DNA of 64,000 bases from an uncultured Dehalococcoidia bacterium (GTDB lineage: Bacteria > Chloroflexota > Dehalococcoidia > Lucifugimonadales > CAJWER01): NCBI GenBank assembly GCA_958296115.1, contig OY282442.1, positions 1,371,158-1,435,157 of the forward strand, read 5' to 3'. Below the pieces are notes generated by a model. That model did not search any database, had not been told where the DNA came from, and saw only the letters and a program-made list of their open reading frames with translations. Made by a program: the position numbers and the translations under genes. Of this stretch, positions 6,588 through 60,695 are shown one piece after another; position 1 is the stretch's first letter, and each line of letters begins with the position of its first letter.

Positions 6588-7769
6588 TCAATGCGCGTCG
6601 AGGCGGAACGTCACCCTGACGTACTTGTTGCGCTCGTCCTGCACGATCTCGGGCTCCATGCCGTTGAACTCGCGCATCGCCTTACGCATCACGGGCCAAC
6701 CTCTGCCTCGTTGCTCCATGAACCCCTTGACGAGCATATAGTTCGCCATAGATTCGTTCCTCGACCTCGGATGCGCGCCAGCGCGCACGCTCTCCACGCT
6801 CATGTGATTCGGCAGCGCCCCTGGGCTGGTTACGTCAACGTGCCCGGAAAAGACCTCGAATAGCGTCTTGGAGCCGGTAATCGCATAGTCACGATGGACT
6901 ACGGCGTTCACCAACGCTTCCCGAACCGCCGCTCGCGGCAGCAATGGACGGTCCTCACGAACCAGTCCCGCATAAGACTCGAACCGCCCAAGACCCAAAA
7001 ACCACCCGACCGCTCGTCGAACCTGCTCGTCCAAACGACCTGTGGCCTCGGCGACCTGCAGTACTTCCGACGCCCTATCTTCACCCCCATACGCGACGCA
7101 ATCTACGCGAAAATTGCGTGTCTGGGGGTAGCGCTGAGGTTCCTTGCCAAAGGCCACGACGCCGTAGAGCGTCGGATACAAGGCGCCTCCAAGCTCGGCC
7201 GTCACGCCCCGATTGCGAAGGTCATCCTCGTTATCGAGCTGGGGATCGTCCTCCATATCGAGTCCAAGTCCATGCAGATAGGAGCGAAAGGCGTGGAGGT
7301 CTATATGCGCAGACGTCGCAGCCTGTATCGTGCGCTCCTCGGTGAGGATGTACCCAAAGGCGTTGTAAAGCTCCTGAAGCTCGACCGCCGACGGCTCGAC
7401 GTTGCTGCGTTCACGCCGAACCCACACCCGGCCGCTGTAACGCAATGGTTCGAACCCGCGTTGCCGAGGCGTCTCCACCCAATGCACCCAGCCCTTCGGA
7501 CCCTCATGCCGTCCACACTCTGCGGAAACAGGCGCGCTGCATCCTGTCTGGAGGAACTGGGTCAGCCGCTCCTGAACACGCTCGGCATCCTCCCGCACGC
7601 CCACGATTTCACGGGAATCCCCTATGCCCAGGATGATAACGCCGCCCTCGGTGTTTGCAAAGGCGCAAATCGCCCTGCCAACTCCCGACAGGTCCCCAAG
7701 CCCGCGTTTGAACTCGGTCACACGGCTCTCGCCCGCTTCGATGCGCCTCAGAACACCCAGCCAATCCAT
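6588..7769 (-). CDS. AlbA_2 (Schlafen-like divergent AAA) / HATPase_c_4 putative DNA-binding protein
   Basis: 393 aa. The N-terminus ESRVTEFKRGL...AICAFANTEGGVIILGI is the AlbA_2 signature. The C-terminal half (REALVNAVVHRDY...) resembles the RecG-like putative ATPase domain. Confidence 0.7.
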   Translation of the reverse strand: MDWLGVLRRIEAGESRVTEFKRGLGDLSGVGRAICAFANTEGGVIILGIGDSREIVGVREDAERVQERLTQFLQTGCSAPVSAECGRHEGPKGWVHWVETPRQRGFEPLRYSGRVWVRRERSNVEPSAVELQELYNAFGYILTEERTIQAATSAHIDLHAFRSYLHGLGLDMEDDPQLDNEDDLRNRGVTAELGGALYPTLYGVVAFGKEPQRYPQTRNFRVDCVAYGGEDRASEVLQVAEATGRLDEQVRRAVGWFLGLGRFESYAGLVREDRPLLPRAAVREALVNAVVHRDYAITGSKTLFEVFSGHVDVTSPGALPNHMSVESVRAGAHPRSRNESMANYMLVKGFMEQRGRGWPVMRKAMREFNGMEPEIVQDERNKYVRVTFRLDAH

Positions 7770-10452: not shown

Positions 10453-11172
10453 CTACGCCCTGGCAGCTGGCAGCCGCTCCACCAGCAGCTCCAGCTCGCG
10501 GCGCCCATTTGCCCTGAGCGGCTGGTAGTGGCTGAAGCAGATGGTGTCGAAGTCCAGCTGGAGAAGCTTGGCGAGGGACTCGTGCGCCTGGCGAACGTCG
10601 GCCGTAACCGCTTCGGACGGCGGGCCGAGCCTCCCGAAGCGGAACTGCATGGCGTCGCCCACGACGAGGACGCCCTTGCCGGGAATGAGCAGGCAGATGC
10701 TCCCCGGCGTGTGGCCGGGCGTATGCACAACCCTGACCTCTTCCTCGAAAGGCAGCGCCTCGCCGTCCTCCAAGCGTATGTCAACGGATGCCGCCCTGCC
10801 GTACAGCGCAGTTACGACGGGTCGCGTTACACCCGCAACGATTCGGTTCCTGTACGGGTCCGGCCTCGGCTTTGAGCCATCGATGAACCCCGCGTCGAGC
10901 CGGTGAGCCGCAACCCTCGCGTTCGTCCCTGCGACCAGCCTCTCAAGGCCGCCCACGTGGTCGGGGTGGTAGTGGGTAACGGCTATCACCGAGACCTGCT
11001 CCGGCCGTATTCCCAGCGCCTCGAGACCGGAGAGTATGAACCCGGCGCTGCCATTCCCGCCGGCGTCTATCAGGAGGGCGCTGCGCTCCGCCGCAAGAAC
11101 GGTAACACGCGCAGCTACTGCGTGTACCTGGTACAGCCCCGGCGCTACCTCTATCGGATTGGCGAGCTTCAA
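10453..11172 (-). CDS. MBL-fold metallo-hydrolase
   Basis: 239 aa with the metal-binding motif VTHYHPDHVGG and a later HTPGHTPG. Confidence 0.8.
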   Translation of the reverse strand: MKLANPIEVAPGLYQVHAVAARVTVLAAERSALLIDAGGNGSAGFILSGLEALGIRPEQVSVIAVTHYHPDHVGGLERLVAGTNARVAAHRLDAGFIDGSKPRPDPYRNRIVAGVTRPVVTALYGRAASVDIRLEDGEALPFEEEVRVVHTPGHTPGSICLLIPGKGVLVVGDAMQFRFGRLGPPSEAVTADVRQAHESLAKLLQLDFDTICFSHYQPLRANGRRELELLVERLPAARA

Positions 11173-11235
11173 ACCTTGCCCTGCCGTATGATACCACTGC
11201 GGATGGGCTGATTCAGGATAGTGTCATGGGGCAAT

Positions 11236-11303
11236 CTCCCCAAAATTGCCCCAAAATTCCCCCAGATCGCCCCTTGACACCGCGAGAACAGCCGTGCTAG
11301 TCT
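11236..11303 (+). promoter_or_regulatory. Sigma-70-type promoter with phased A-tract (UP-like) repeats, copy 1
   Basis: TTGACA at 11274-11279, an 18-nt spacer ending in TGc, and TAGTCT at 11298-11303. It is preceded by the ~11-bp phased units aaaattgcccc / aaaattccccc / agatcgcccc. The whole arrangement is conserved in the second copy. Confidence 0.45.
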
Positions 11304-11308
11304 AGTAG

Positions 11309-11748
11309 ACGGCCCGAAGGGGCGTACACCAAACGAGCACAGAACCACCTCTGCCAAATCTGGGCATTCATGCCGTCGCTGATGTTGGGACGGGACCACC
11401 TGCGGTATGAGAAGGTCCGGCTGTGTTTCGGCGCCTCGCCAGGAGGACGCAGTGCCAAATGCGTCTCCCCCGTTCCAGGTGCGGACTCTCGGACGACCGG
11501 GAGGACCGTAGCCAGCGCAGCCCGACGCCTTGGCGGGTGGAAGGACGAAGCGCGAAACGCAGGCGGTCCCGCAAGGGCCCGTCAGCCGTCCGGGAAAGTT
11601 AGAGGAGGGGCTGCACCCCCAATGTCGGCGGGCGATCGACGTCGGCATCCTCGAAGCAAGTACCGGAGTCACTGCCTTGCAAGGCAAACTCATCTCCCGC
11701 GAGAGCGGGGGAAACCAGGAGTAGACAGGACGCGGGTCCCAGACCCGC
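11309..11748 (+). ncRNA. Candidate ~440-nt structured ncRNA of unknown family, copy 1
   Basis: Non-coding interval immediately downstream of the promoter. Hairpins are capped by GNRA loops only on this strand: cucccgc-GAGA-gcggggg, ggtccc-GCAA-gggccc and cucucgg-ACGA-ccgggag. It ends in the hairpin gcgggtc-cca-gacccgc (11732-11748). A second copy lies at 50825-51265. Confidence 0.45.
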
Positions 11749-11751
11749 CAA

Positions 11752-12110
11752 GTACCCTCTCCCTCACGGGGGAAAGGGCCAGGGTGAGGGCAAACGCCCC
11801 GCCCTGCGTCCCCTCCCCCAAAGGGAAAGGGCTAGGAGACAAGGGCGATAAGCCCGCAAAAGGAGCCGACCGAGACGAAACGAACATAGCCGAAGGCGCC
11901 AACAAGGCCCCAGCCTTCATCACCCCTCTCCTCACGGGGGGAGAGACCCAAGGGTGAAGGCAATTCAGCGCGCCCGTCTTGTCCCCCCTCCCTTGACGGG
12001 AAAGGGATAGGGTGAGGGTGACTCCCCCTCGCCCCAAAAGGACCGCAGGCGGGACGCCTGCCACATCCCCTCTCCCCTGACGGATAGGGGCAATTCAGCG
12101 CGCCCGCCTC
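11752..12110. repeat. Array of REP-like palindromic elements (ccctctccc-N4/5-gggagaggg family), copy 1
   Basis: At least five degenerate hairpin units, for example 11921-11948 and 11981-12012, interspersed with gggtgagggtga modules. The array is homologous to 50470-50822 in inverted orientation. Confidence 0.75.
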
Positions 12111-12196
12111 ATCCCACGCTGGCGGGAGACACGTAGTTTGCCCTGCCGGGCGGACTGGACGAGGGGCCATTTAGACGTGATTGCCCCTGGATAGTG

Positions 12197-12799
12197 TCAC
12201 GGGTCGGATGGACCGGGTACCTCTACAGGCGGCTCGTCCCTGAAACGAAAAGACCAGGGGCCGTCAGCGCCGTCCGCCGGGGCATCGAAGATAGAGACCC
12301 ACGGCCTCGGCGCGCCGCCGGGTCTCAACAGCGCGGTCTCGGTAAGCTCGTAACCGCCGGGCGACTTGGCCCAGGCGGCGAGGCCAGACTCCGAGCTCCG
12401 CAGCGTCGCGCCGTCTGGCGTGGTCATCGAAAAGTCGTCCTGCGACACGCGGATATCTTCCCCGGAGCCGTTGGCGAGGACGTACCGCACCTCGACGAAT
12501 ACGCCTTCCGGCTCTGTTCCGCCTATATGAGGCAGGAGCCGGGCGCCGCTGACCGCTATCACAACCGTCGCTGGCTGCGGCGAAGCTGGCGGGGGGTCCG
12601 GTCCACCTGAACAGGCGACCGAACATGCCATAACCGCCGCGGCCAAAGCATGGGCTTGAGTGACGAATCGCGCGGTTACTCCTCGCCGAATCGGAGCACC
12701 TGCTGAAGTGAAAGCCGTCGGACCACGATAACGACGGCAGTGATTATCAACGTGAACGCTGCGACGATGGCCGCGTACGTCAAGGCAAGGGCCGCCCAA
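12197..12799 (-). CDS. Putative lipoprotein, DUF4352-like beta-sandwich (start uncertain)
   Basis: Signal-like RRGVTARFVTQAHALAAAVMACSVAC with a lipobox Cys, followed by a Pro-rich linker and a beta-rich domain. The only canonical start, ATG 12799, overlaps the upstream FtsX gene by ~120 nt, so the true start may be non-canonical near 12690. Confidence 0.45.
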   Translation of the reverse strand: MGGPCLDVRGHRRSVHVDNHCRRYRGPTAFTSAGAPIRRGVTARFVTQAHALAAAVMACSVACSGGPDPPPASPQPATVVIAVSGARLLPHIGGTEPEGVFVEVRYVLANGSGEDIRVSQDDFSMTTPDGATLRSSESGLAAWAKSPGGYELTETALLRPGGAPRPWVSIFDAPADGADGPWSFRFRDEPPVEVPGPSDP

Positions 12800-27130: not shown

Positions 27131-27184
27131 CCCGGAATCCACCGCCGGGCCCGAGGGTCAGACGCGCGTCACCCGGCATCGCTC

Positions 27185-27232
27185 CCACCCTATCCCCTCT
27201 CCCTTGATGGGAGAGGGTTAGGGTGATTCAGG
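27185..27232. repeat. REP-like palindromic element (single unit)
   Basis: ccctctccc (27195-27203) - ttgat - gggagaggg (27209-27217), followed by ttagggtgattca. It sits between convergent genes. Confidence 0.8.
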
Positions 27233-29605: not shown

Positions 29606-29655
29606 GGCAGTCCCGCCTTGTCCCCTCTCCCGTCAAGGGAGAGGGAGATTCAGGA
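29606..29655. repeat. REP-like palindromic element (single unit)
   Basis: ggcagtcccgccttgtcc + ccctctccc (29623-29631) - gtcaa - gggagaggg (29637-29645) + agattcagg. It is the reverse-complement relative of the element at 45393-45452. Confidence 0.8.
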
Positions 29656-45392: not shown

Positions 45393-45452
45393 CTGAATCA
45401 CCCTCACCCTAACCCTCTCCCGTCAAGGGAGAGGGGATAAGGCGGGACTGCC
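45393..45452. repeat. Full-length REP-like palindromic element
   Basis: ctgaatcaccctcaccctaa-ccctctccc-gtcaa-gggagaggg-gataaggcgggactgcc, between the convergent truB and DUF4340 genes. Confidence 0.8.
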
Positions 45453-50469: not shown

Positions 50470-50822
50470 GGATGCAGGCGGGACGCCTGCGGTCCTTTTG
50501 GGGCGAGGGGGAGTCACCCTCACCCATCAAGGGAGAGGGGACAAGACGGGCGCGCTGAATTGCCTTCACCCTTGGGTCTCTCCCCGTGGGGGGAGGGGTG
50601 ATGAAGGCTGGGGCGTTGTTGGCGCCTTCGTCTATGTTCGCGTTGTCTCGGTCGGCTCCTTTGCGGGCTTATCGCCCTTATCCTGGCCCTTCTCCCGTCT
50701 GGGGAGGGGGACGGGGCGGGGAATCGCCCTTGTCTCCTAGCCCTTTCCCTTCGGGGGAGGGGCGCAGGGCGGGGCGTTTGCCCTCACCCTGGCCCTTATC
50801 CCCCTTGAGGGAGAGGGTACTT
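50470..50822. repeat. Array of REP-like palindromic elements, copy 2 (inverted relative to 11752-12065)
   Basis: Collinear with the reverse complement of copy 1. It carries one extra unit (about 50660-50715). Confidence 0.75.
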
Positions 50823-50824
50823 GG

Positions 50825-51265
50825 CGGGTCTTGCGACCCGCGACCTGTCTACTCCTGGTTTCCCCCGCTCTCGCGGGAGATGAGTTTGCCTTGCAAGGCA
50901 GTGACTCCGGTACTTGCTTCGAGGATGCCGACGTCGATCGCCCGCCGACACTGGGGGTGCAGCCCCTCCTCTAACTTTCCCGGACGGCTGACGGGCCCTT
51001 GCGGGACCGCCTGCGTTTCGCGCTTGGACCTTCCACCCGCCAAGGCGTCGGGCTGCGCTGGCTACGGTCCTCCCGGTCGTCCGAGAGTCCGCACCTGGAA
51101 CGGGGGAGGAGCATTTGGCACTGCGTCCTCCTGGGGGGGCGCCGAAACACAGAGCGACCTTCTCATACCGCGGGGGCCCCGTCCCAACAGCAGCGGCGGC
51201 ATGAATACCCTGATATTTGGTAGAGGTGGGTCTGTGCTCGTTTGGTGTACGCCCCTTCGGGCCGT
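50825..51265 (-). ncRNA. Candidate ~440-nt structured ncRNA of unknown family, copy 2
   Basis: Reverse complement aligns with 11309-11748. By hand alignment the 3' ~260 nt are almost identical (3 differences) and the 5' ~160 nt differ at roughly 17 positions. The terminal hairpin loop is GCAA here versus cca in copy 1. Confidence 0.45.
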
Positions 51266-51270
51266 CTACC

Positions 51271-51337
51271 AGACTAGCACGGCTGTTCTCGCGGTGTCAA
51301 GGGGCAGTTTGGGGCAATTTGGGGGCAATTTTCGGGG
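51271..51337 (-). promoter_or_regulatory. Sigma-70-type promoter with phased A-tract repeats, copy 2
   Basis: On the minus strand: TTGACA (51300-51295), an 18-nt spacer, and TAGTCT (51276-51271). It is preceded by gaaaattgcccc / caaattgcccc / aaactgcccc. Confidence 0.45.
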
Positions 51338-51347
51338 TAGGCCGGGG

Positions 51348-51402
51348 AATCACCCTCACCCTGGCCCTCTCCCGTCGAGGGAGAGGGGAGAAGGCGGGGG
51401 GA
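51348..51402. repeat. REP-like palindromic element (single unit)
   Basis: gaatcaccctcaccctgg-ccctctccc-gtcga-gggagaggg-gagaaggcgggg. Confidence 0.75.
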
Positions 51403-51439
51403 GGGAGTGCAGGCGGGGCGGCTGCGGTCCTTTTTCTGA

Positions 51440-51468: not shown

Positions 51469-51531
51469 TTGGGTTCAGGTTCGAGGGGGCTGTGAGCATG
51501 GCCTCGGCGAAGCGCGAGGGGGTTGAGCGCG

Positions 51532-53143
<1,612 letters not shown>

Positions 53144-53151
<8 letters not shown>

Positions 53152-53575
53152 GGCCATGCCACTTGAGTTGGACCACCTGAGGAAATCTATCCAAGCCCTC
53201 TCGGACCTGCTTGCGGTCAGCGACAACGACGAGCGCATGGGGCAGTTGAGCGAGGTCGAGCGGACCGGCATCCGCGCCGGCGTCATCAAGAACTTCGAGA
53301 CCACCTATGAGCTATCCTGGAAGCTGATAGCCCGCTGGCTGAAAACCCACGTCGGTTCCGAAGCCGACGGCGTAACGCGGCGTGAGCTATTCCGACTTGC
53401 CGCTGAAAATCGCCTTATCCCTGACGTGGACTTGTGGATGGGTCATCATGTCGCAAGGAACGACACCGCCCACGTATACGACGAGGGAAAGGCTGATCAG
53501 GTCTATAGAGCCACCATGGACTTCGCGCATGACGCGCGGCGGCTGCTGGAGATCCTGGAAGCGCGGAATGATTGA
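53144..53575 (+). CDS. HEPN-domain protein (HI0074 / nucleotidyltransferase substrate-binding family)
   Basis: 143 aa with the family-typical [13 protein letters not shown] and the Rx4H motif RNDTAH. The start overlaps the hsdM stop (ATGAATAG). Confidence 0.8.
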
Positions 53576-55172
53576 TCTCAACCCGAATCATCTTGTAACG
53601 GTCGAGGGCATCTTGGCCGAGCACGTGCCGGAGTGCGAGGTGCGAGCTTTCGGCTCCCGCGCGACCTGGACCGCGAAGGACTACTCGGACCTTGACCTGG
53701 CGGTAGTCGGCGGCGGGCCGTTGGACATGGGAAGGCTGGGACGCCTGAGGGAAGCCTTCCAGGAGTCCGACCTGCCCATGCGGGTGGAAGCGCTAGACTG
53801 GCACGCCGTCTCCCAGGGTTTCCGGGATGTGATCGAGCGGGGATACGTGGTAGTGCAGAAGGGGGCGGGAGAGTGGCGCGAAGTGGCGCTGGGGGGAATC
53901 GCCGAGATCAACGAAGCTACCTACTCCCCTAAAGAAGGCTGGCCGTTCGTCAATTATCTGGATACCGGGAATATCACCGAGAACCACATATCGGAAATTC
54001 AGCATCTCGTTACCGGCACAGATAAGATTCCGAGCCGAGCACGTAGAAAGGTTAAGCAGGGCGACATCGTGTATTCCACCGTGCGCCCCAACCAGCGGCA
54101 CTTCGGGTTGATCAAGGAAGTACCGGAAAACTTCCTGGCCTCGACGGGATTTGCCGTCATTCGTGGGAAGGCTGATGTCGCTTGCACGGATTTCATTTAT
54201 TGGTTCCTAGCGCAAGACCATGTAGTCGATTACCTTCATTCAATAGCAGAGAACAGCACGTCAGCGTACCCGTCTATCAAGCCTGGCGACTTGGAACAAT
54301 TGGTACTGCCCATGCCGCCGTTGGCCGAGCAGCGGGCGATTGCCCACGCGCTGGGGACGCTGGACGACAAGATTGAGTTGAATCGGCGGATGAATGAGAC
54401 GCTGGAGGGGATGGCGCGGGCGCTGTTCGAGTCGTGGTTCGTGGATTTCGACCCGGTGCGGGCGAAGATGGAGGGGCGGGATACGGGCCTGCCAGCGGAT
54501 GTCGCCGCGCTGTTCCCGGGCCGGCTGGTGGAGTCGGAGCTGGGGGAGATTCCGGAGGGGTGGGGGGTTGGGACGCTTGATGGTATGATAGAGTTGCTGA
54601 GTGGTGGCACCCCCAAGACGTCAGTTGTTGAGTACTGGGATGGGGATATACTCTGGTACACCGCTAAGGACGCTCCCAACCTGAGCGATGTCTTTGTCCT
54701 GGAGACTGAGAGGACCATAACCCAAGCCGGGATTGAGAACAGCGCCGCAAGAGTTCTTCCAGTGGGAACAACGACAATCACCGCCAGAGGCACTGTTGGT
54801 AGACTTGCCTGTCTCGGCATACCGATGGCTATGAATCAGACCTGCTATGGGATTCGCGGCGCTCACGGGTATCCTGATTTCTTCACCTATTGGAACGTGA
54901 GGACAGCTGTGGATGAGTTGCAACAGAGGACTCACGGCACGATCTTTGATACAATCACCCGTCAGACCTTCACCCTCATTGAGATGGCAACGCCGCCTGT
55001 AGAATTGGCGAAGGCATTCGAATCGACGCTGGGGCCTGTGATGGGGCGCATCCGCGGCAATCTTCAGGAATCTCGTACTTTGACCATCTTGCGGGATGCG
55101 TTGCTGCCGAGGCTGGTGTCGGGGGAGGTGCGGGTGGGAGAGGTAAATCGACCTGCGACAAGGAGTGCATAA
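53568..55172 (+). CDS. hsdS: Minimal nucleotidyltransferase (MNT) domain fused in frame to a type I R-M specificity subunit
   Basis: The first ~95 aa carry FGSRA...SDLDLAV (GS...DxD NTase motif). The rest is a two-TRD HsdS with the central conserved helix LAEQRAIAHALGTLDDKIELNRRMNETLE and the C-terminal LRDALLPRLVSGEVRV. The start overlaps the HEPN stop (ATGATTGA). Confidence 0.8.
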   Translation: MIDLNPNHLVTVEGILAEHVPECEVRAFGSRATWTAKDYSDLDLAVVGGGPLDMGRLGRLREAFQESDLPMRVEALDWHAVSQGFRDVIERGYVVVQKGAGEWREVALGGIAEINEATYSPKEGWPFVNYLDTGNITENHISEIQHLVTGTDKIPSRARRKVKQGDIVYSTVRPNQRHFGLIKEVPENFLASTGFAVIRGKADVACTDFIYWFLAQDHVVDYLHSIAENSTSAYPSIKPGDLEQLVLPMPPLAEQRAIAHALGTLDDKIELNRRMNETLEGMARALFESWFVDFDPVRAKMEGRDTGLPADVAALFPGRLVESELGEIPEGWGVGTLDGMIELLSGGTPKTSVVEYWDGDILWYTAKDAPNLSDVFVLETERTITQAGIENSAARVLPVGTTTITARGTVGRLACLGIPMAMNQTCYGIRGAHGYPDFFTYWNVRTAVDELQQRTHGTIFDTITRQTFTLIEMATPPVELAKAFESTLGPVMGRIRGNLQESRTLTILRDALLPRLVSGEVRVGEVNRPATRSA

Positions 55173-56029
55173 TGGCTTTGATACCGCCTTCTTTCCTGAA
55201 CACGGTTGTTGCTTTGGGAAGAGAGTGCCAAGATGGGACAGCCCGATACAACGCAACGGGTTTTCTGTATGGTATTCCCAGTGGTGATACCGACGAGAAT
55301 GGGAAAAATATGTATCACCCTTTCCTAGTAACTAATCGGCACGTGTTCGAAGGGATATTTAAGCATACTGATACACTGTGTGCGAGGTTCAACAAGCGCA
55401 CACAAATTGATGCAAATGTGTACACTATGAAAGAGGGAAATCGCCCATGGACTGTTCATCCGGATCCGCGCATTGATGTTGCGGTCTTGGAAATCGACTT
55501 AAATAGCTTAAGAGCCGACGGTATCGAATACGCATTCTTCCCGGGCGATACGCATGCACTTACGCTCGAGCAAGCCCGTAGCAGTGAGATCAGCGAAGGA
55601 GATGGAGTTTTTGTATTAGGATTTCCATTGGGGGACGCCGGAGATGAGCGGAATTATCCAATCGTGCGACAAGGAATAATTGCCCGTATTCAGAATTGGC
55701 TGAGGGGAGATGCACGTACATTCTTGATAGACGCTTCCATTTTCCCTGGCAACAGTGGTGGCCCAGTTCTCCTTAAACCCGAAATCGCTTCTATTCAGGG
55801 TACACAACGTAATGATAGATGCGTACTAATCGGCATGGTCTCTTCCTACCTACCATACCAAGAAGTTGCTATAAGCAACCAGACCGGACGGACAAGGATG
55901 ATATTCGAAGAGAATTCAGGGCTTGGCACCGTAGTGCCTCATGACGCGATACAAAAGACCATTAGAATCGCTGTTGATAATCTCAGTTCTAGCGAACGGG
56001 TTGCTGCTCCAGAAGAGCAAACCGAATGA
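55172..56029 (+). CDS. Cytoplasmic chymotrypsin-fold (S1, Trypsin_2-like) serine protease
   Basis: 285 aa with no signal peptide. Triad contexts are LVTNRHVF, IDVAVLEI and FPGNSGGPVL. The start overlaps the hsdS stop (TAATG). The gene is markedly AT-richer than its flanks. Confidence 0.75.
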   Translation: MALIPPSFLNTVVALGRECQDGTARYNATGFLYGIPSGDTDENGKNMYHPFLVTNRHVFEGIFKHTDTLCARFNKRTQIDANVYTMKEGNRPWTVHPDPRIDVAVLEIDLNSLRADGIEYAFFPGDTHALTLEQARSSEISEGDGVFVLGFPLGDAGDERNYPIVRQGIIARIQNWLRGDARTFLIDASIFPGNSGGPVLLKPEIASIQGTQRNDRCVLIGMVSSYLPYQEVAISNQTGRTRMIFEENSGLGTVVPHDAIQKTIRIAVDNLSSSERVAAPEEQTE

Positions 56030-56039
56030 AGCCTCCCCC

Positions 56040-56328
56040 ATGACCACCATCACCGAAGCTGACGTCGAGCGGGCGGCCCTGGAATGGCTGGCGGGTGGAG
56101 CATGGGCGAGACATCGCGTCCGACACGCCCGGCGCGGAGCGGGACGATTATGGGCAGGTCGTCCTGGAGGGGCGGCTGCGTGTGGCCGTGGGCCAGACCC
56201 GCCGCGCGGCCAAATTGCGGCGCATCGTCTCGAACGGGCGTGAGTCTTGCGCCCTCGCCGCCCTGCGTGATACACTGGCGCCGAGGCTGGTGTCGGGGGA
56301 GATACGAGTGAGGGAAATTGTGCCATGA
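56040..56328 (+). pseudogene. Chimeric relic: 5' fragment of an hsdR fused to the 3' end of an hsdS
   Basis: 56040-56190 aligns to the hsdR start ([19 protein letters not shown]... versus [19 protein letters not shown]...) with a ~13-nt deletion. 56215-56328 encodes ...[28 protein letters not shown], compared with the hsdS C-terminus ESRTLTILRDALLPRLVSGEVRVGEV. Confidence 0.8.
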
Positions 56329-56777
56329 CCTTGGGTCAGCAGGAATACAAGGCCATTATTAGCGATCCTAACAAAGTCATTCGTGAAAACATCCTTTGGG
56401 AGGGCAATCCCAATTCCACAAGCCGTGAATTCAGAATAGACGTCGAATCCGACGAGGGTTACCCCATTTTTGTAAAGGGCTGGTACAATTCCTCTTCAGG
56501 CAAGTTGTCCTACGCTATCATCCATCGCACCGTGGGCCGAATCCATGGCTTGGATTTGGGAGCAGACCACCGGAACCCGGATGGGAAATTGGTGGGCGAG
56601 AAGCACAAGCACCGCTGGGCGCCGGACTATCGGGATAAGTGTGCCTACGTGCCAGAGGACATTACCGAGACTTGGGACCGTCCAGTTGCCGTTTGGCGCC
56701 AGTTCTGCGCAGAAACGCGTCTGACCCACTCAGGCGCCATGCAGCCCCCTGTAACTCAAAGGGTATTGCCGCTGTGA
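56325..56777 (+). CDS. Hypothetical protein (150 aa) with a His-rich GADHRNPDG-x7-HKHRW motif
   Basis: Low-GC ORF. The ATG overlaps the relic hsdS stop (ATGA) and its own stop overlaps the next start (GTGA). I recognise no family. Confidence 0.6.
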
Positions 56778-57550
56778 ACGTCAACGAACTCTGCATATCC
56801 ATAGGGCAATCGCTGCCGCCCCTGTTTGAGTGCTCGCCGGCCCCGCAAGAGGGAGTACGGGTGCGTACGCCGCTGCTGTATCCCGACGGCGGAGTTGTTG
56901 ACGTTTTTGTACTGGAACGGGGCTACGGTTACACCGTTACCGACTTTGGGGATGCTCTGGGCTGGCTTGGATTGCAATCGGTAAGCAAGCGACGTTCACC
57001 CAAGCAACAATCTCTGGCGCAGGACGTGTGCCAAACGCTGCGCATCGAGTTGGTTCAAGAACAACTGGTTCTTCGCAACGTGCTGAACCATGCACTGGCT
57101 GAATCGGTGTTGCGGGTAGCTCAGGCCGCCGTGCGCGTCTCCGACCTGTGGTTCACTCTGCGGAGCCAATCCCTCCAGACAACTGCTGATGAGGTGGAGG
57201 AGTGGTTACGCGAGAAGCAGATTAACTATGAACGCGCCGTACAGAGACAGGGAAGATCAATGCACACCTGGACGGTCGATTTTGAGACCTACGCCAACCG
57301 CACCTCGCTCGTCTTTTTGCTAAGCACGGGCGCCCGTGGGGCGGCCCGTAGGTTGACTGAGCATGTTTTGTCTGGATGTATGGACCTGAACCACCTCAAG
57401 GCTACCCAACAAGGTCTGTACTTCATTTCCCTATTCGACGATACCGAAGACGTATGGCGGGAGGAGGACTTCAATTTGGTAAACGAGCAATCAGAAATCG
57501 CACGTTGGTCACATTCCGATGAGCTTGAGCGCCTCCTCAGGGCCGCATGA
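56774..57550 (+). CDS. DUF1828/DUF1829-like two-domain protein
   Basis: 258 aa from the GTG at 56774. The N-terminal pattern [38 protein letters not shown] resembles DUF1828. The C-terminal half ([21 protein letters not shown]) resembles DUF1829. The assignment is from memory of family patterns and was not searched. Confidence 0.5.
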
Positions 57551-57563
57551 TCGCCCTCACCGA

Positions 57564-60695
<3,132 letters not shown>

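Follow-up and report, generated by a model that had tools for sequence, protein, structure and literature searches.

The stretch of DNA analysed here, 64,000 nt from an uncultured Dehalococcoidia bacterium (contig OY282442.1; hereafter the window), carries at 11236–11748 an intergenic block that probably holds the promoter and gene of a structured RNA of about 430 nt, within a repeated unit whose ends resemble those of an insertion sequence (IS). The block lies between two minus-strand genes, one for a metallo-beta-lactamase-fold protein on its left (10453–11172) and a small one on its right (12197 to ~12670), which follows the gene for a 1123-aa FtsX-like permease. The small open reading frame (ORF) has no Pfam match yet is apparently a real gene, since relatives carry a 145–159-aa gene in the equivalent position after their FtsX-like permease gene. 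A second copy (copy 2, as opposed to copy 1 at 11236) lies on the minus strand at 51336–50474, is 87% identical to copy 1 over 880 nt and has a core ABC operon on one side and a type I restriction-modification island on the other. Core chromosome separates the two copies and includes nusA, infB, truB and haem-synthesis genes. Genome G+C content is 65.7%, and the closest named proteins to those of the window belong to Chloroflexota metagenome-assembled genomes labelled Anaerolineae, Thermoflexales or 'Chloroflexi bacterium'.

The block is non-coding. An earlier note on this DNA had seen no credible ORF in it, and three observations bear that out: G+C content by codon position is flat in the ORFs of the block (0.60/0.61/0.64, compared with about 0.68/0.47/0.85 in real genes here), indels of +2 and −1 nt between copy 1 and copy 2 shift the frame, and a Pfam search of all six frames of 11228–12187 (E ≤ 1) returned no domain and no transposase or transposase remnant. 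We also considered a type I toxin mRNA, which was rejected because a conserved small hydrophobic ORF is absent. Differences between the two copies are concentrated in 11344–11464 (~17 substitutions and three indel positions), with only three substitutions in the remaining core (11545, 11547 and 11622) and two further differences beyond it, at 11730 and in the terminal loop.

Homologues came from an exhaustive HMMER protein search with the stop-free antisense translation of 11298–11750 as query. It gave eight genuine matches, all of them spurious predicted ORFs overlying homologues of the block; such ORF calls in protein databases are thus a usable route to homologues of non-coding RNAs. A ninth match (P0271, E = 4e-32), a 2358-aa protein of 26 repeats ('IVRTWTATDACGNSSSC'), was rejected as a false positive whose score is the sum of weak matches to VRTW..D..G. 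Three of the genuine matches (P0269, P0270 and P0276) lie on the same 3,002,008-bp contig as the window's own proteins (P0001, P0149) and are distinct from both window copies, so the source genome holds at least five copies. P0272 led to locus L009 in ENA assembly ERZ19489113, which is 93–94% identical to the window copies and falls in clade A; P0275, P0273 and P0274 led to L010, L011 and L012, respectively, all in ENA assembly ERZ25070786 and all in clade B. The earlier note had regarded an RNA confined to this genome as doubtful, and L009–L012 place it in other assemblies as well.

Sequence conservation among these copies is uneven. Searched with copy 1, nhmmer gave E-values of 5e-128 for L009 and ~1e-64 to 1e-66 for the clade-B copies, and a profile search recovered exactly six copies in the DNA examined (1e-122 to 1e-138). 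Identity is 88–95% within clades and 70.5–74.9% between clades A and B; 283 of 441 columns are invariant across the six DNA copies of the two clades, while flanks beyond the promoter, RNA and termini are unalignable between clades. Compared with the window copies, the RNA of L009 (5027–5447) shows four single-base deletions, each within a homopolymer run (GGCCC to GGCC, GTTTC to GTTC, GCCTT to GCTT and TCCCG to TCCG); errors of long-read assembly are a likelier cause than real changes.

The range found so far comprises the source genome and the two ENA assemblies. BLASTN against plasmid and phage collections gave no match, none of four motifs, two invariant blocks among them, had a match in IMG/VR, and a six-frame concatenated protein query found nothing. 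Two conserved blocks produced 184 pattern matches in GTDB species-representative genomes, 0 of which were confirmed, so by these patterns the family seems absent from that set. The exact 20-mer TCGAAGCAAGTACCGGAGTC had 0 matches in GTDB species genomes, which is little informative as this motif is not conserved in clade B; a junction pattern had one chance match in JGI metagenomes, on a contig of 36% G+C, and is uninformative for the same reason.

The RNA has a conserved secondary structure that is specific to the plus strand. We aligned the six DNA copies (alignment A4; copy-1 span 11304–11726), and the conserved core runs from 11309, a 5' end placed by reference to the −10 element, to 11726 in copy 1 and over 50847–51270 (minus strand) in copy 2, whose core is 94.8% identical to that of copy 1. 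RNAalifold folded the six sequences into 116 pairs in 19 helices and returned identical pairs when covariation terms were dropped, so the consensus is not driven by those terms. Standard pairs fill 97.2% of cells compared with 95.0% in shuffles (0 of 500 reach this), and ten pairs have changed on both sides compared with 5.5 ± 1.3 in shuffles (0 of 500) and 0–4 in slid controls. The consensus minimum free energy (MFE) of the plus strand is −118.9 kcal/mol, where column shuffles give −87.3 ± 6.3 kcal/mol (z = −5.0, 0 of 120 reach it), and folds computed from clade A only and clade B only have 75 pairs in common, against 5.7 ± 5.7 in shuffles (maximum 29). On the minus strand z was −3.1 and the clade folds had only 8 pairs in common.

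We note that this support arose only once the more distant homologues were added. With the two window copies alone there was no statistical support for structure (MFE z = −1.63 for the plus strand, −0.49 for the minus strand), the substitutions in copy 2 break copy-1 MFE pairs at the random rate (11, with 8.9 expected), and the MFE of copy 2 falls within the distribution of random copy-1 mutants. Single-sequence MFE folds are unreliable here; those of copy 1 and L010 share only 4 pairs.

Several hairpins (H9, H13, H15 and H19) keep their shape despite sequence change. The last tetraloop hairpin is CUCCCGC-GAGA-GCGGGGG in clade A, CCCCGCC-GAAA-GGCGGGG in clade B and UUCCCCGC-CAAG-GCGGGGAA in L012, and the tip of H9 is CUCUCGG-ACGA-CCGGGAG in clade A and UGGGG-AAAC-CCCAG in clade B. 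The longest invariant block, TGTCGGCGGGCGATCGACGTCGGCATCC (11623–11650, plus strand), is invariant and identically folded in all six copies, as a 9-bp stem with a 9-nt loop GGCGAUCGA that contains the 6-nt palindrome CGAUCG. Other long invariant blocks are CTCCCCCGTTCCAGGTGCGGACTC (11465–11488) and AGGACCGTAGCCAGCGCAGCCC (11502–11523). Beyond the core, a G+C-rich hairpin without a U tract (GCGGGUC-CCA-GACCCGC, 11732–11748, plus strand) probably marks the 3' end or serves as terminator; its stem is identical in copy 2 and L009, where the loop is GCAA, and clade B has non-homologous G+C hairpins in the equivalent position. A UUCCA/UGGAA pseudoknot was rejected because it is lost in clade B.

The earlier note had described a GNRA-rich, plus-strand structured RNA in which some differences between the two window copies preserve pairing. 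The plus-strand RNA is well supported by the z of −5.0, the 75 common pairs and the weaker minus strand, and the hairpins and tetraloops are present, while "GNRA-rich" was an overstatement, as GCAA and GAGA are the sole true GNRA loops of copy 1. The differences it listed between the copies (a GT/TC register shift, C to U in the ggca/ggua stem, and CCA versus GCAA in the terminal loop) are all present.

Upstream of the core lies a predicted sigma-70-type promoter (11274–11303, plus strand), with a TTGACA −35 element (11274–11279), an 18-nt spacer, a TG-c extended −10 and a TAGTCT −10 element (11298–11303). A generic sigma-70 scan did not call it because its −10 agrees with the consensus at no more than 3 of 6 positions. 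In the 64 kb, copy 1 and copy 2 are the sole sites of the pattern TTGACA-N15-TGNTANNNT, for which 0 are expected, and the promoter is conserved in all six copies, each with CCCCTTGACA, a spacer of equal length retaining AGAA and CCGTGCTA, and a −10 of TAGTCT, TATCAT or TATCCT. Clade B, 70–75% identical to clade A, keeps the −35 box, the spacing, the TG-extended −10 and −10 positions T1, A2 and T6, while the rest of the spacer and all DNA further upstream diverge between the clades. Directly upstream of the −35 box, three phased ~11-bp repeats (CCCCAAAATTG-like) occupy 11238–11273 (plus strand); CCCCAAAATTG-like units have 8 matches in the window compared with 1.4 expected, all but two of them at copies 1 and 2. 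In copy 2 the phased repeats (51301–51336) and a promoter identical to that of copy 1 (51271–51300) together span 51271–51336 on the minus strand, and clade B has three phased ~10-bp repeats of other sequence (CTCTGTG-like) in the equivalent position. Both the promoter and the phased A-tract units had been noticed before, and both recur at copy 2, the promoter also in the second clade. Since the promoter elements are kept while the spacer, the upstream DNA and the sequences of the phased repeats differ, the pattern fits a promoter in use that has a protein-binding or DNA-bending module upstream.

The ends of the unit point to transposition. In copy 1 an identical 10-mer, GATAGTGTCA, lies at 11217–11226 and 12190–12199 and abuts inverted termini on both sides, as a target-site duplication (TSD) does; its right copy overlaps the stop codon of the small gene. 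The left terminal inverted repeat (11227–11249, plus strand) reads T-GGGGCAATCTCCCCAAAATTG, with T in place of the outermost CA of the consensus CAGGGGCAAT, and matches the right terminus at ~20 of 25 positions by eye. The right terminal inverted repeat (12168–12189, plus strand) ends in ...GACGTGATTGCCCCTG (reverse complement CAGGGGCAATCACGTC) and matches GATGCGATTGCCCTG of L009 and GACGCGATTGCCCTG of the clade-B copy L011. Beside the TSD the left end thus reads T-GGGGCAATC... and the right end ...GATTGCCCCTG, and a repeat search gave inverted arms of 36 nt (11217–11252 and 12163–12198) that are 72% complementary. L009 has a different perfect 10-bp duplication, TGCCGCAATG, abutting its termini on both sides; its left terminus is CAGGGGCAATTGCATCTGAATTG (also written CAGGGCAATCGC... 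or CAGGGCAATCGCATC...) and its right terminus ...GCAATTGCCCCTG (CAGGGCAATCGCATCTTATTG), each ~22 bp, with 19 of 22 positions matching by our own count. L011 has the same right terminus (CAGGGCAATCGCGTC), and a search for its opposite end did not find one. Neither terminus is present in copy 2, which has REP (repetitive extragenic palindromic) units at its borders.

A 15-nt direct repeat around the block had been taken earlier as a hint of insertion. The repeat is real, with its right copy at 12189–12203 as described and its left copy at 11216–11230 rather than 11214–11228, and the hint is strengthened by the 10-bp TSD at its core, which adjoins inverted termini in a pattern repeated at the independent copy L009. 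The earlier note had recognised neither that the RNA is the cargo of a transposon-like unit nor that the genome has at least five copies. Relatives with 76–82% identical orthologues lack the unit at both syntenic sites, where the order is FtsX-like gene, small gene and E1 dehydrogenase gene (site 1) and aminotransferase gene, 170–270 nt and ABC ATPase gene (site 2); nhmmer and blastn searches of these two loci in the relatives found neither the RNA nor the REPs.

Termini and duplication are those of the ISAs1 family, whose hallmarks are inverted repeats of 14–22 bp starting CAGGG and a 10-bp direct repeat (PMC11946415), as in ISArsp11 (inverted repeat CAGGGCTGATGCAAAGTCG, 10-bp direct repeat, 1,306 bp; PMC6305408). 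The unit has CAGGG-type inverted termini in that size range and a 10-bp target duplication, and it lacks the single DDE transposase gene that ISAs1 elements carry between their ends. IS-type ends, a TSD, no transposase and several copies per genome are also the features of miniature inverted-repeat transposable elements (MITEs) and mobile insertion cassettes. Because neither a transposase nor a remnant lies between the ends, the unit at 11227–12189 (963 bp) is, judged by its sequence, a non-autonomous ISAs1-like derivative, a putative large MITE or mobile insertion cassette, rather than an IS.

Much of the unit downstream of the RNA consists of repeats. A REP-like palindromic array with a non-REP spacer occupies 11751–12075 and is common to copy 2 and L009; in copy 2 the terminal hairpin (50824–50841, GCAA loop) and REP array together cover 50474–50841 on the minus strand, with another REP unit upstream. 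This REP-like family (CCCTCTCCC...GGGTGAGGG) occurs in the window at 11751–12075, 50474–50820, 51340–51430, 27177–27226, 29612–29646 and 45395–45446 and was not found in ~130 kb of DNA from the closest relatives. The clade-B genomes have different REP-like hairpins (GGGGCGGTTCGYGAACCGCCC, GTCATWCCCGCGAAAGCGGGWAT), and REP-type hairpins thus lie 3' of the RNA in both clades, from different sequence families. A 23-nt motif, TCCTGAAWATCCYGATTCWGACA, is common to clades A and B downstream of the RNA inside the unit (L009 4597–4619, L010 4967–4989 and L011 4967–4989 on the minus strand), and L010 and L012 have it upstream of their promoters too. The window lacks the motif; the left flank of copy 1, GCTGATTCAGGATA (11207–11220), resembles part of it. 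The motif may serve as a binding site for a protein or belong to another repeat. L010 (c.4640–4700) and L011 (c.4760–4820) further have three TGGACA repeats 11–12 nt apart (AACTGGACAAAAATGGACAATTCTGGACAG) with an inverted TGTCCA ~90 nt off, within an A+T-richer stretch of ~400 nt downstream of the RNA that forms the 3' part of the clade-B unit. These repeats may be protein-binding sites.

The RNA matches no family that we searched for. At the gathering threshold Rfam 15 gave 0 matches in the whole window and in L009–L012, and at E ≤ 10 both clades gave only chance matches (microRNA, small nucleolar RNA and CRISPR-DR models), those in the window region falling on REP hairpins. No Rfam model matched, including those of RNase P, tmRNA, SRP, 6S, group I and II introns, OLE, GOLLD, ROOL, HEARO and raiA, and ARAGORN found no tRNA or tmRNA. 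The earlier note had failed to place the RNA by eye, and the Rfam comparison it recommended placed neither clade. We also rejected a permuted RNase P, to whose CR-I and CR-V the strings GGAAAGU and ACAGAAC bear a likeness, since no model matched and the gene is multi-copy. A CsrB-like sponge was likewise rejected, as GGA motifs, judged by eye with no formal count, are not enriched and lie mostly in stems.

Genomic context does not point to a function. Neighbouring genes are unrelated from one of the six loci to the next (the metallo-beta-lactamase-fold and small genes at copy 1; hsdM and the ABC operon at copy 2; speD, an arginase gene and nuo genes at L009; infC at L010; uvrD at L011; relA/spoT at L012), and at 4 of 6 loci, as chance would give, the gene that follows downstream is co-directional. 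The type I restriction-modification island directly upstream of copy 2 (51523–60695) holds hsdM (51523–53151), an hsdS-like gene with a nucleotidyltransferase domain (53382–55172), hsdR (57519–60695), a trypsin-like peptidase gene and a DUF1828 gene, and is not present in the syntenic region of the relatives. A few kilobases left of copy 1 lie a gene with Schlafen/AlbA_2 and HATPase_c_4 domains (6588–7769) and a Uma2-family putative endonuclease gene (30–881), which may be defence-related.

Taken together, we think it probable that this locus encodes an unclassified structured RNA of ~430 nt, driven by a conserved promoter of its own, and that the gene is spread in multiple copies on an element with ISAs1-type ends and no transposase. 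The element at 11227–12189 would have ~22-bp inverted termini beginning CAGGG(G)CAAT, a 10-bp TSD and no transposase. Its promoter, ~45 bp inside the left end, would read inward to give an RNA of ~420–440 nt, from ~11309 to 11726 or 11748, with the remainder of the unit filled by REP-type palindromes. The RNA itself is predicted to run from a long irregular 5' stem with a variable hairpin through a central multi-helix junction to a 3' three-way junction, with two tetraloop hairpins and the terminal G+C hairpin as further parts. An ISAs1-type DDE transposase encoded elsewhere would mobilise the element, and copy 2 would be an immobilised copy that has lost its termini and kept the RNA gene intact. 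Bacterial RNAs of more than 400 nt with conserved complex folds are rare, and to our knowledge almost every studied class of such large RNAs is a ribozyme, a ribonucleoprotein (RNP) core or an unusual self-assembling particle. Our best guess at function is an RNA made abundantly and acting in trans as a folded molecule, whether as an RNP scaffold or as a self-associating, RNA-only assembly. A less likely, more interesting role would be in the element's own propagation; there is perhaps a slim chance that the RNA is required for or controls movement of its DDE (ISAs1-type) element, a part that bridge RNAs and omega RNAs play in other families, or that it is a self-assembling particle hitch-hiking on transposon ends. 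Either case would give the first example of a large structured RNA associated with a DDE insertion-sequence family.

A number of observations weigh against this interpretation or limit it. The left terminus of copy 1 (TGGGGCAATC, with T in place of CA) is an imperfect match to the CAGGG start, although the right end (CAGGGGCAATCACGTC) fits; left ends are not definable in the clade-B copies, which are embedded among other repeats and whose similarity borders vary from copy to copy; and no ISAs1-type transposase with matching termini was seen in the DNA examined (the 64-kb window and the retrieved loci). Support for the fold comes from only six DNA sequences in two clades, where each three-versus-three compensatory change counts as one evolutionary event, and the 88–95% identity among copies of the same genome may be due to recent spread or gene conversion and not to selection. 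Shuffles were mononucleotide column shuffles, and by them the compensatory pairs are the weaker signal (10 compared with 5.5 ± 1.9, maximum 12, z = 2.3). Both ends of the RNA are inferred, its terminal hairpin having no U tract, and the idea of a kissing loop is based on a single invariant palindrome.

Some of the observations would suit other explanations. An autonomous ISAs1-like element might have a transposase mRNA with a long structured 5' leader, and the RNA could be that leader; the copies would then be internal-deletion derivatives that keep the left end, promoter and leader, so that the RNA would matter only for control of transposase expression in the master copy. An inward-reading promoter just inside the left inverted repeat is the usual place for an IS transposase promoter, and terminus-related repeats (AAATTGCCCC) overlap the region upstream of it, which would permit autoregulation by the transposase. 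We nevertheless regard a leader as unlikely. ISAs1 elements in the ISfinder tables are 1.2–1.5 kb long and have short leaders. One of 430 nt would not fit an element of that size (1,306 bp in ISArsp11; PMC6305408), no frame holds a transposase remnant, the RNA is closed by its own terminal hairpin in every copy, the presumably immobilised copy 2 keeps the RNA 94.8% identical, and a full-length element was not found. It is also improbable that there is no functional RNA at all and that the unit is a young repeat, its conservation due to recent copying or to DNA-level roles (protein-binding sites or a mobile outward promoter) and its folds incidental to G+C-rich DNA. The failure of the window copies alone to support structure (z = −1.63, and the substitution and mutant tests), the 4 pairs shared by the MFE folds of copy 1 and L010 and the co-directional gene downstream at 4 of 6 loci agree with such a repeat. 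What speaks against it is that the clades are 70–75% identical with unalignable flanks and yet have 283 of 441 RNA columns invariant, that the conserved fold is strand-specific, that hairpins retain their shape through sequence change, and that the downstream genes are unrelated, with co-directionality at the level of chance.

Transposition itself could be mistaken if this were an ordinary host non-coding RNA family duplicated by recombination between REP arrays, with the ends of copy 1 and L009 coincidental or belonging to another repeat. Copy 2 has no termini and has REP units on its flanks, the clade-B copies lie within other direct repeats and have variable similarity borders, and GGCAATTCAG-type strings also occur inside REP-like units. 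We consider this very unlikely, given that two independent copies have different perfect 10-bp duplications exactly abutting the same inverted termini, that a third copy, from the other clade, has the same right terminus, and that the unit is absent from both syntenic sites in relatives. A protein-coding gene or pseudogene is hardly credible. Both strands do contain long open frames, of 174 aa and 195 aa for copy 1 and of 285 aa (antisense) for copy 2, and gene callers have called antisense ORFs over several copies, but codon-position G+C is flat, the frames shift, with stops, between copies and clades, all frames lack Pfam matches, and the called ORFs differ in frame and start from copy to copy.

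The structured RNA gene and its element resemble several known systems without matching any one of them. With ISAs1 insertion sequences and their non-autonomous derivatives (MITEs and mobile insertion cassettes) the unit shares CAGGG termini of 14–22 bp and a 10-bp TSD. It is present in multiple copies at unrelated sites and missing from the syntenic sites of relatives, and, as in mobile insertion cassettes, its IS-type ends enclose a passenger but no transposase. An ISAs1 IS differs in carrying a transposase, whereas the passenger here is a promoter-driven 430-nt structured RNA with REPs and not a protein gene, and at 963 bp the unit is larger than typical MITEs. REP arrays and bacterial interspersed mosaic elements share with it the REP-like palindromes that build its 3' half and are found elsewhere in the window, but these are short palindromes, and they leave the promoter and the 420-nt non-repetitive conserved core unexplained.

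Among RNAs of mobile elements, the IS110 bridge RNA and the omega RNA or reRNA of IS200/IS605 (HEARO) are likewise structured non-coding RNAs near a transposon end, with a promoter at that end. They accompany a recombinase or nuclease gene and contain a programmable guide, whereas no protein gene adjoins the present RNA inside its unit, the neighbours being unrelated housekeeping or transport genes; no guide-like segment is derived from the flanks, since the 5' and 3' parts of the RNA are homologous among copies. The ends here are those of a DDE-type family (ISAs1), and the HEARO model gave no match. The large 'ornate' RNAs (OLE, GOLLD, ROOL and raiA) are similar in exceeding 400 nt, in their many helices and long invariant stretches and in encoding no protein, and GOLLD and ROOL are also associated with mobile DNA. 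Their Rfam models do not match the present RNA, which differs further in having its own conserved promoter, transposon ends and a range of two narrow lineages only. Homo-oligomeric assembly has been documented for OLE, ROOL and GOLLD (PMC12286853), and the invariant palindromic loop GGCGAUCGA could mediate self-association of the present RNA. We treat its CGAUCG as a candidate kissing (self-pairing) contact, as a lead only; a 9-bp stem with a 9-nt loop that includes a palindrome resembles the HIV-1 dimerisation hairpin in layout. What is new compared with these systems is an RNA outside Rfam with its own conserved, strong-looking promoter, present in at least five copies in a 3-Mb genome between IS ends that enclose no transposase. 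The unit thereby connects two active fields, large 'ornate' RNAs and the RNA components of mobile elements, in a testable object with one transcript, one palindromic loop and one transposase family.

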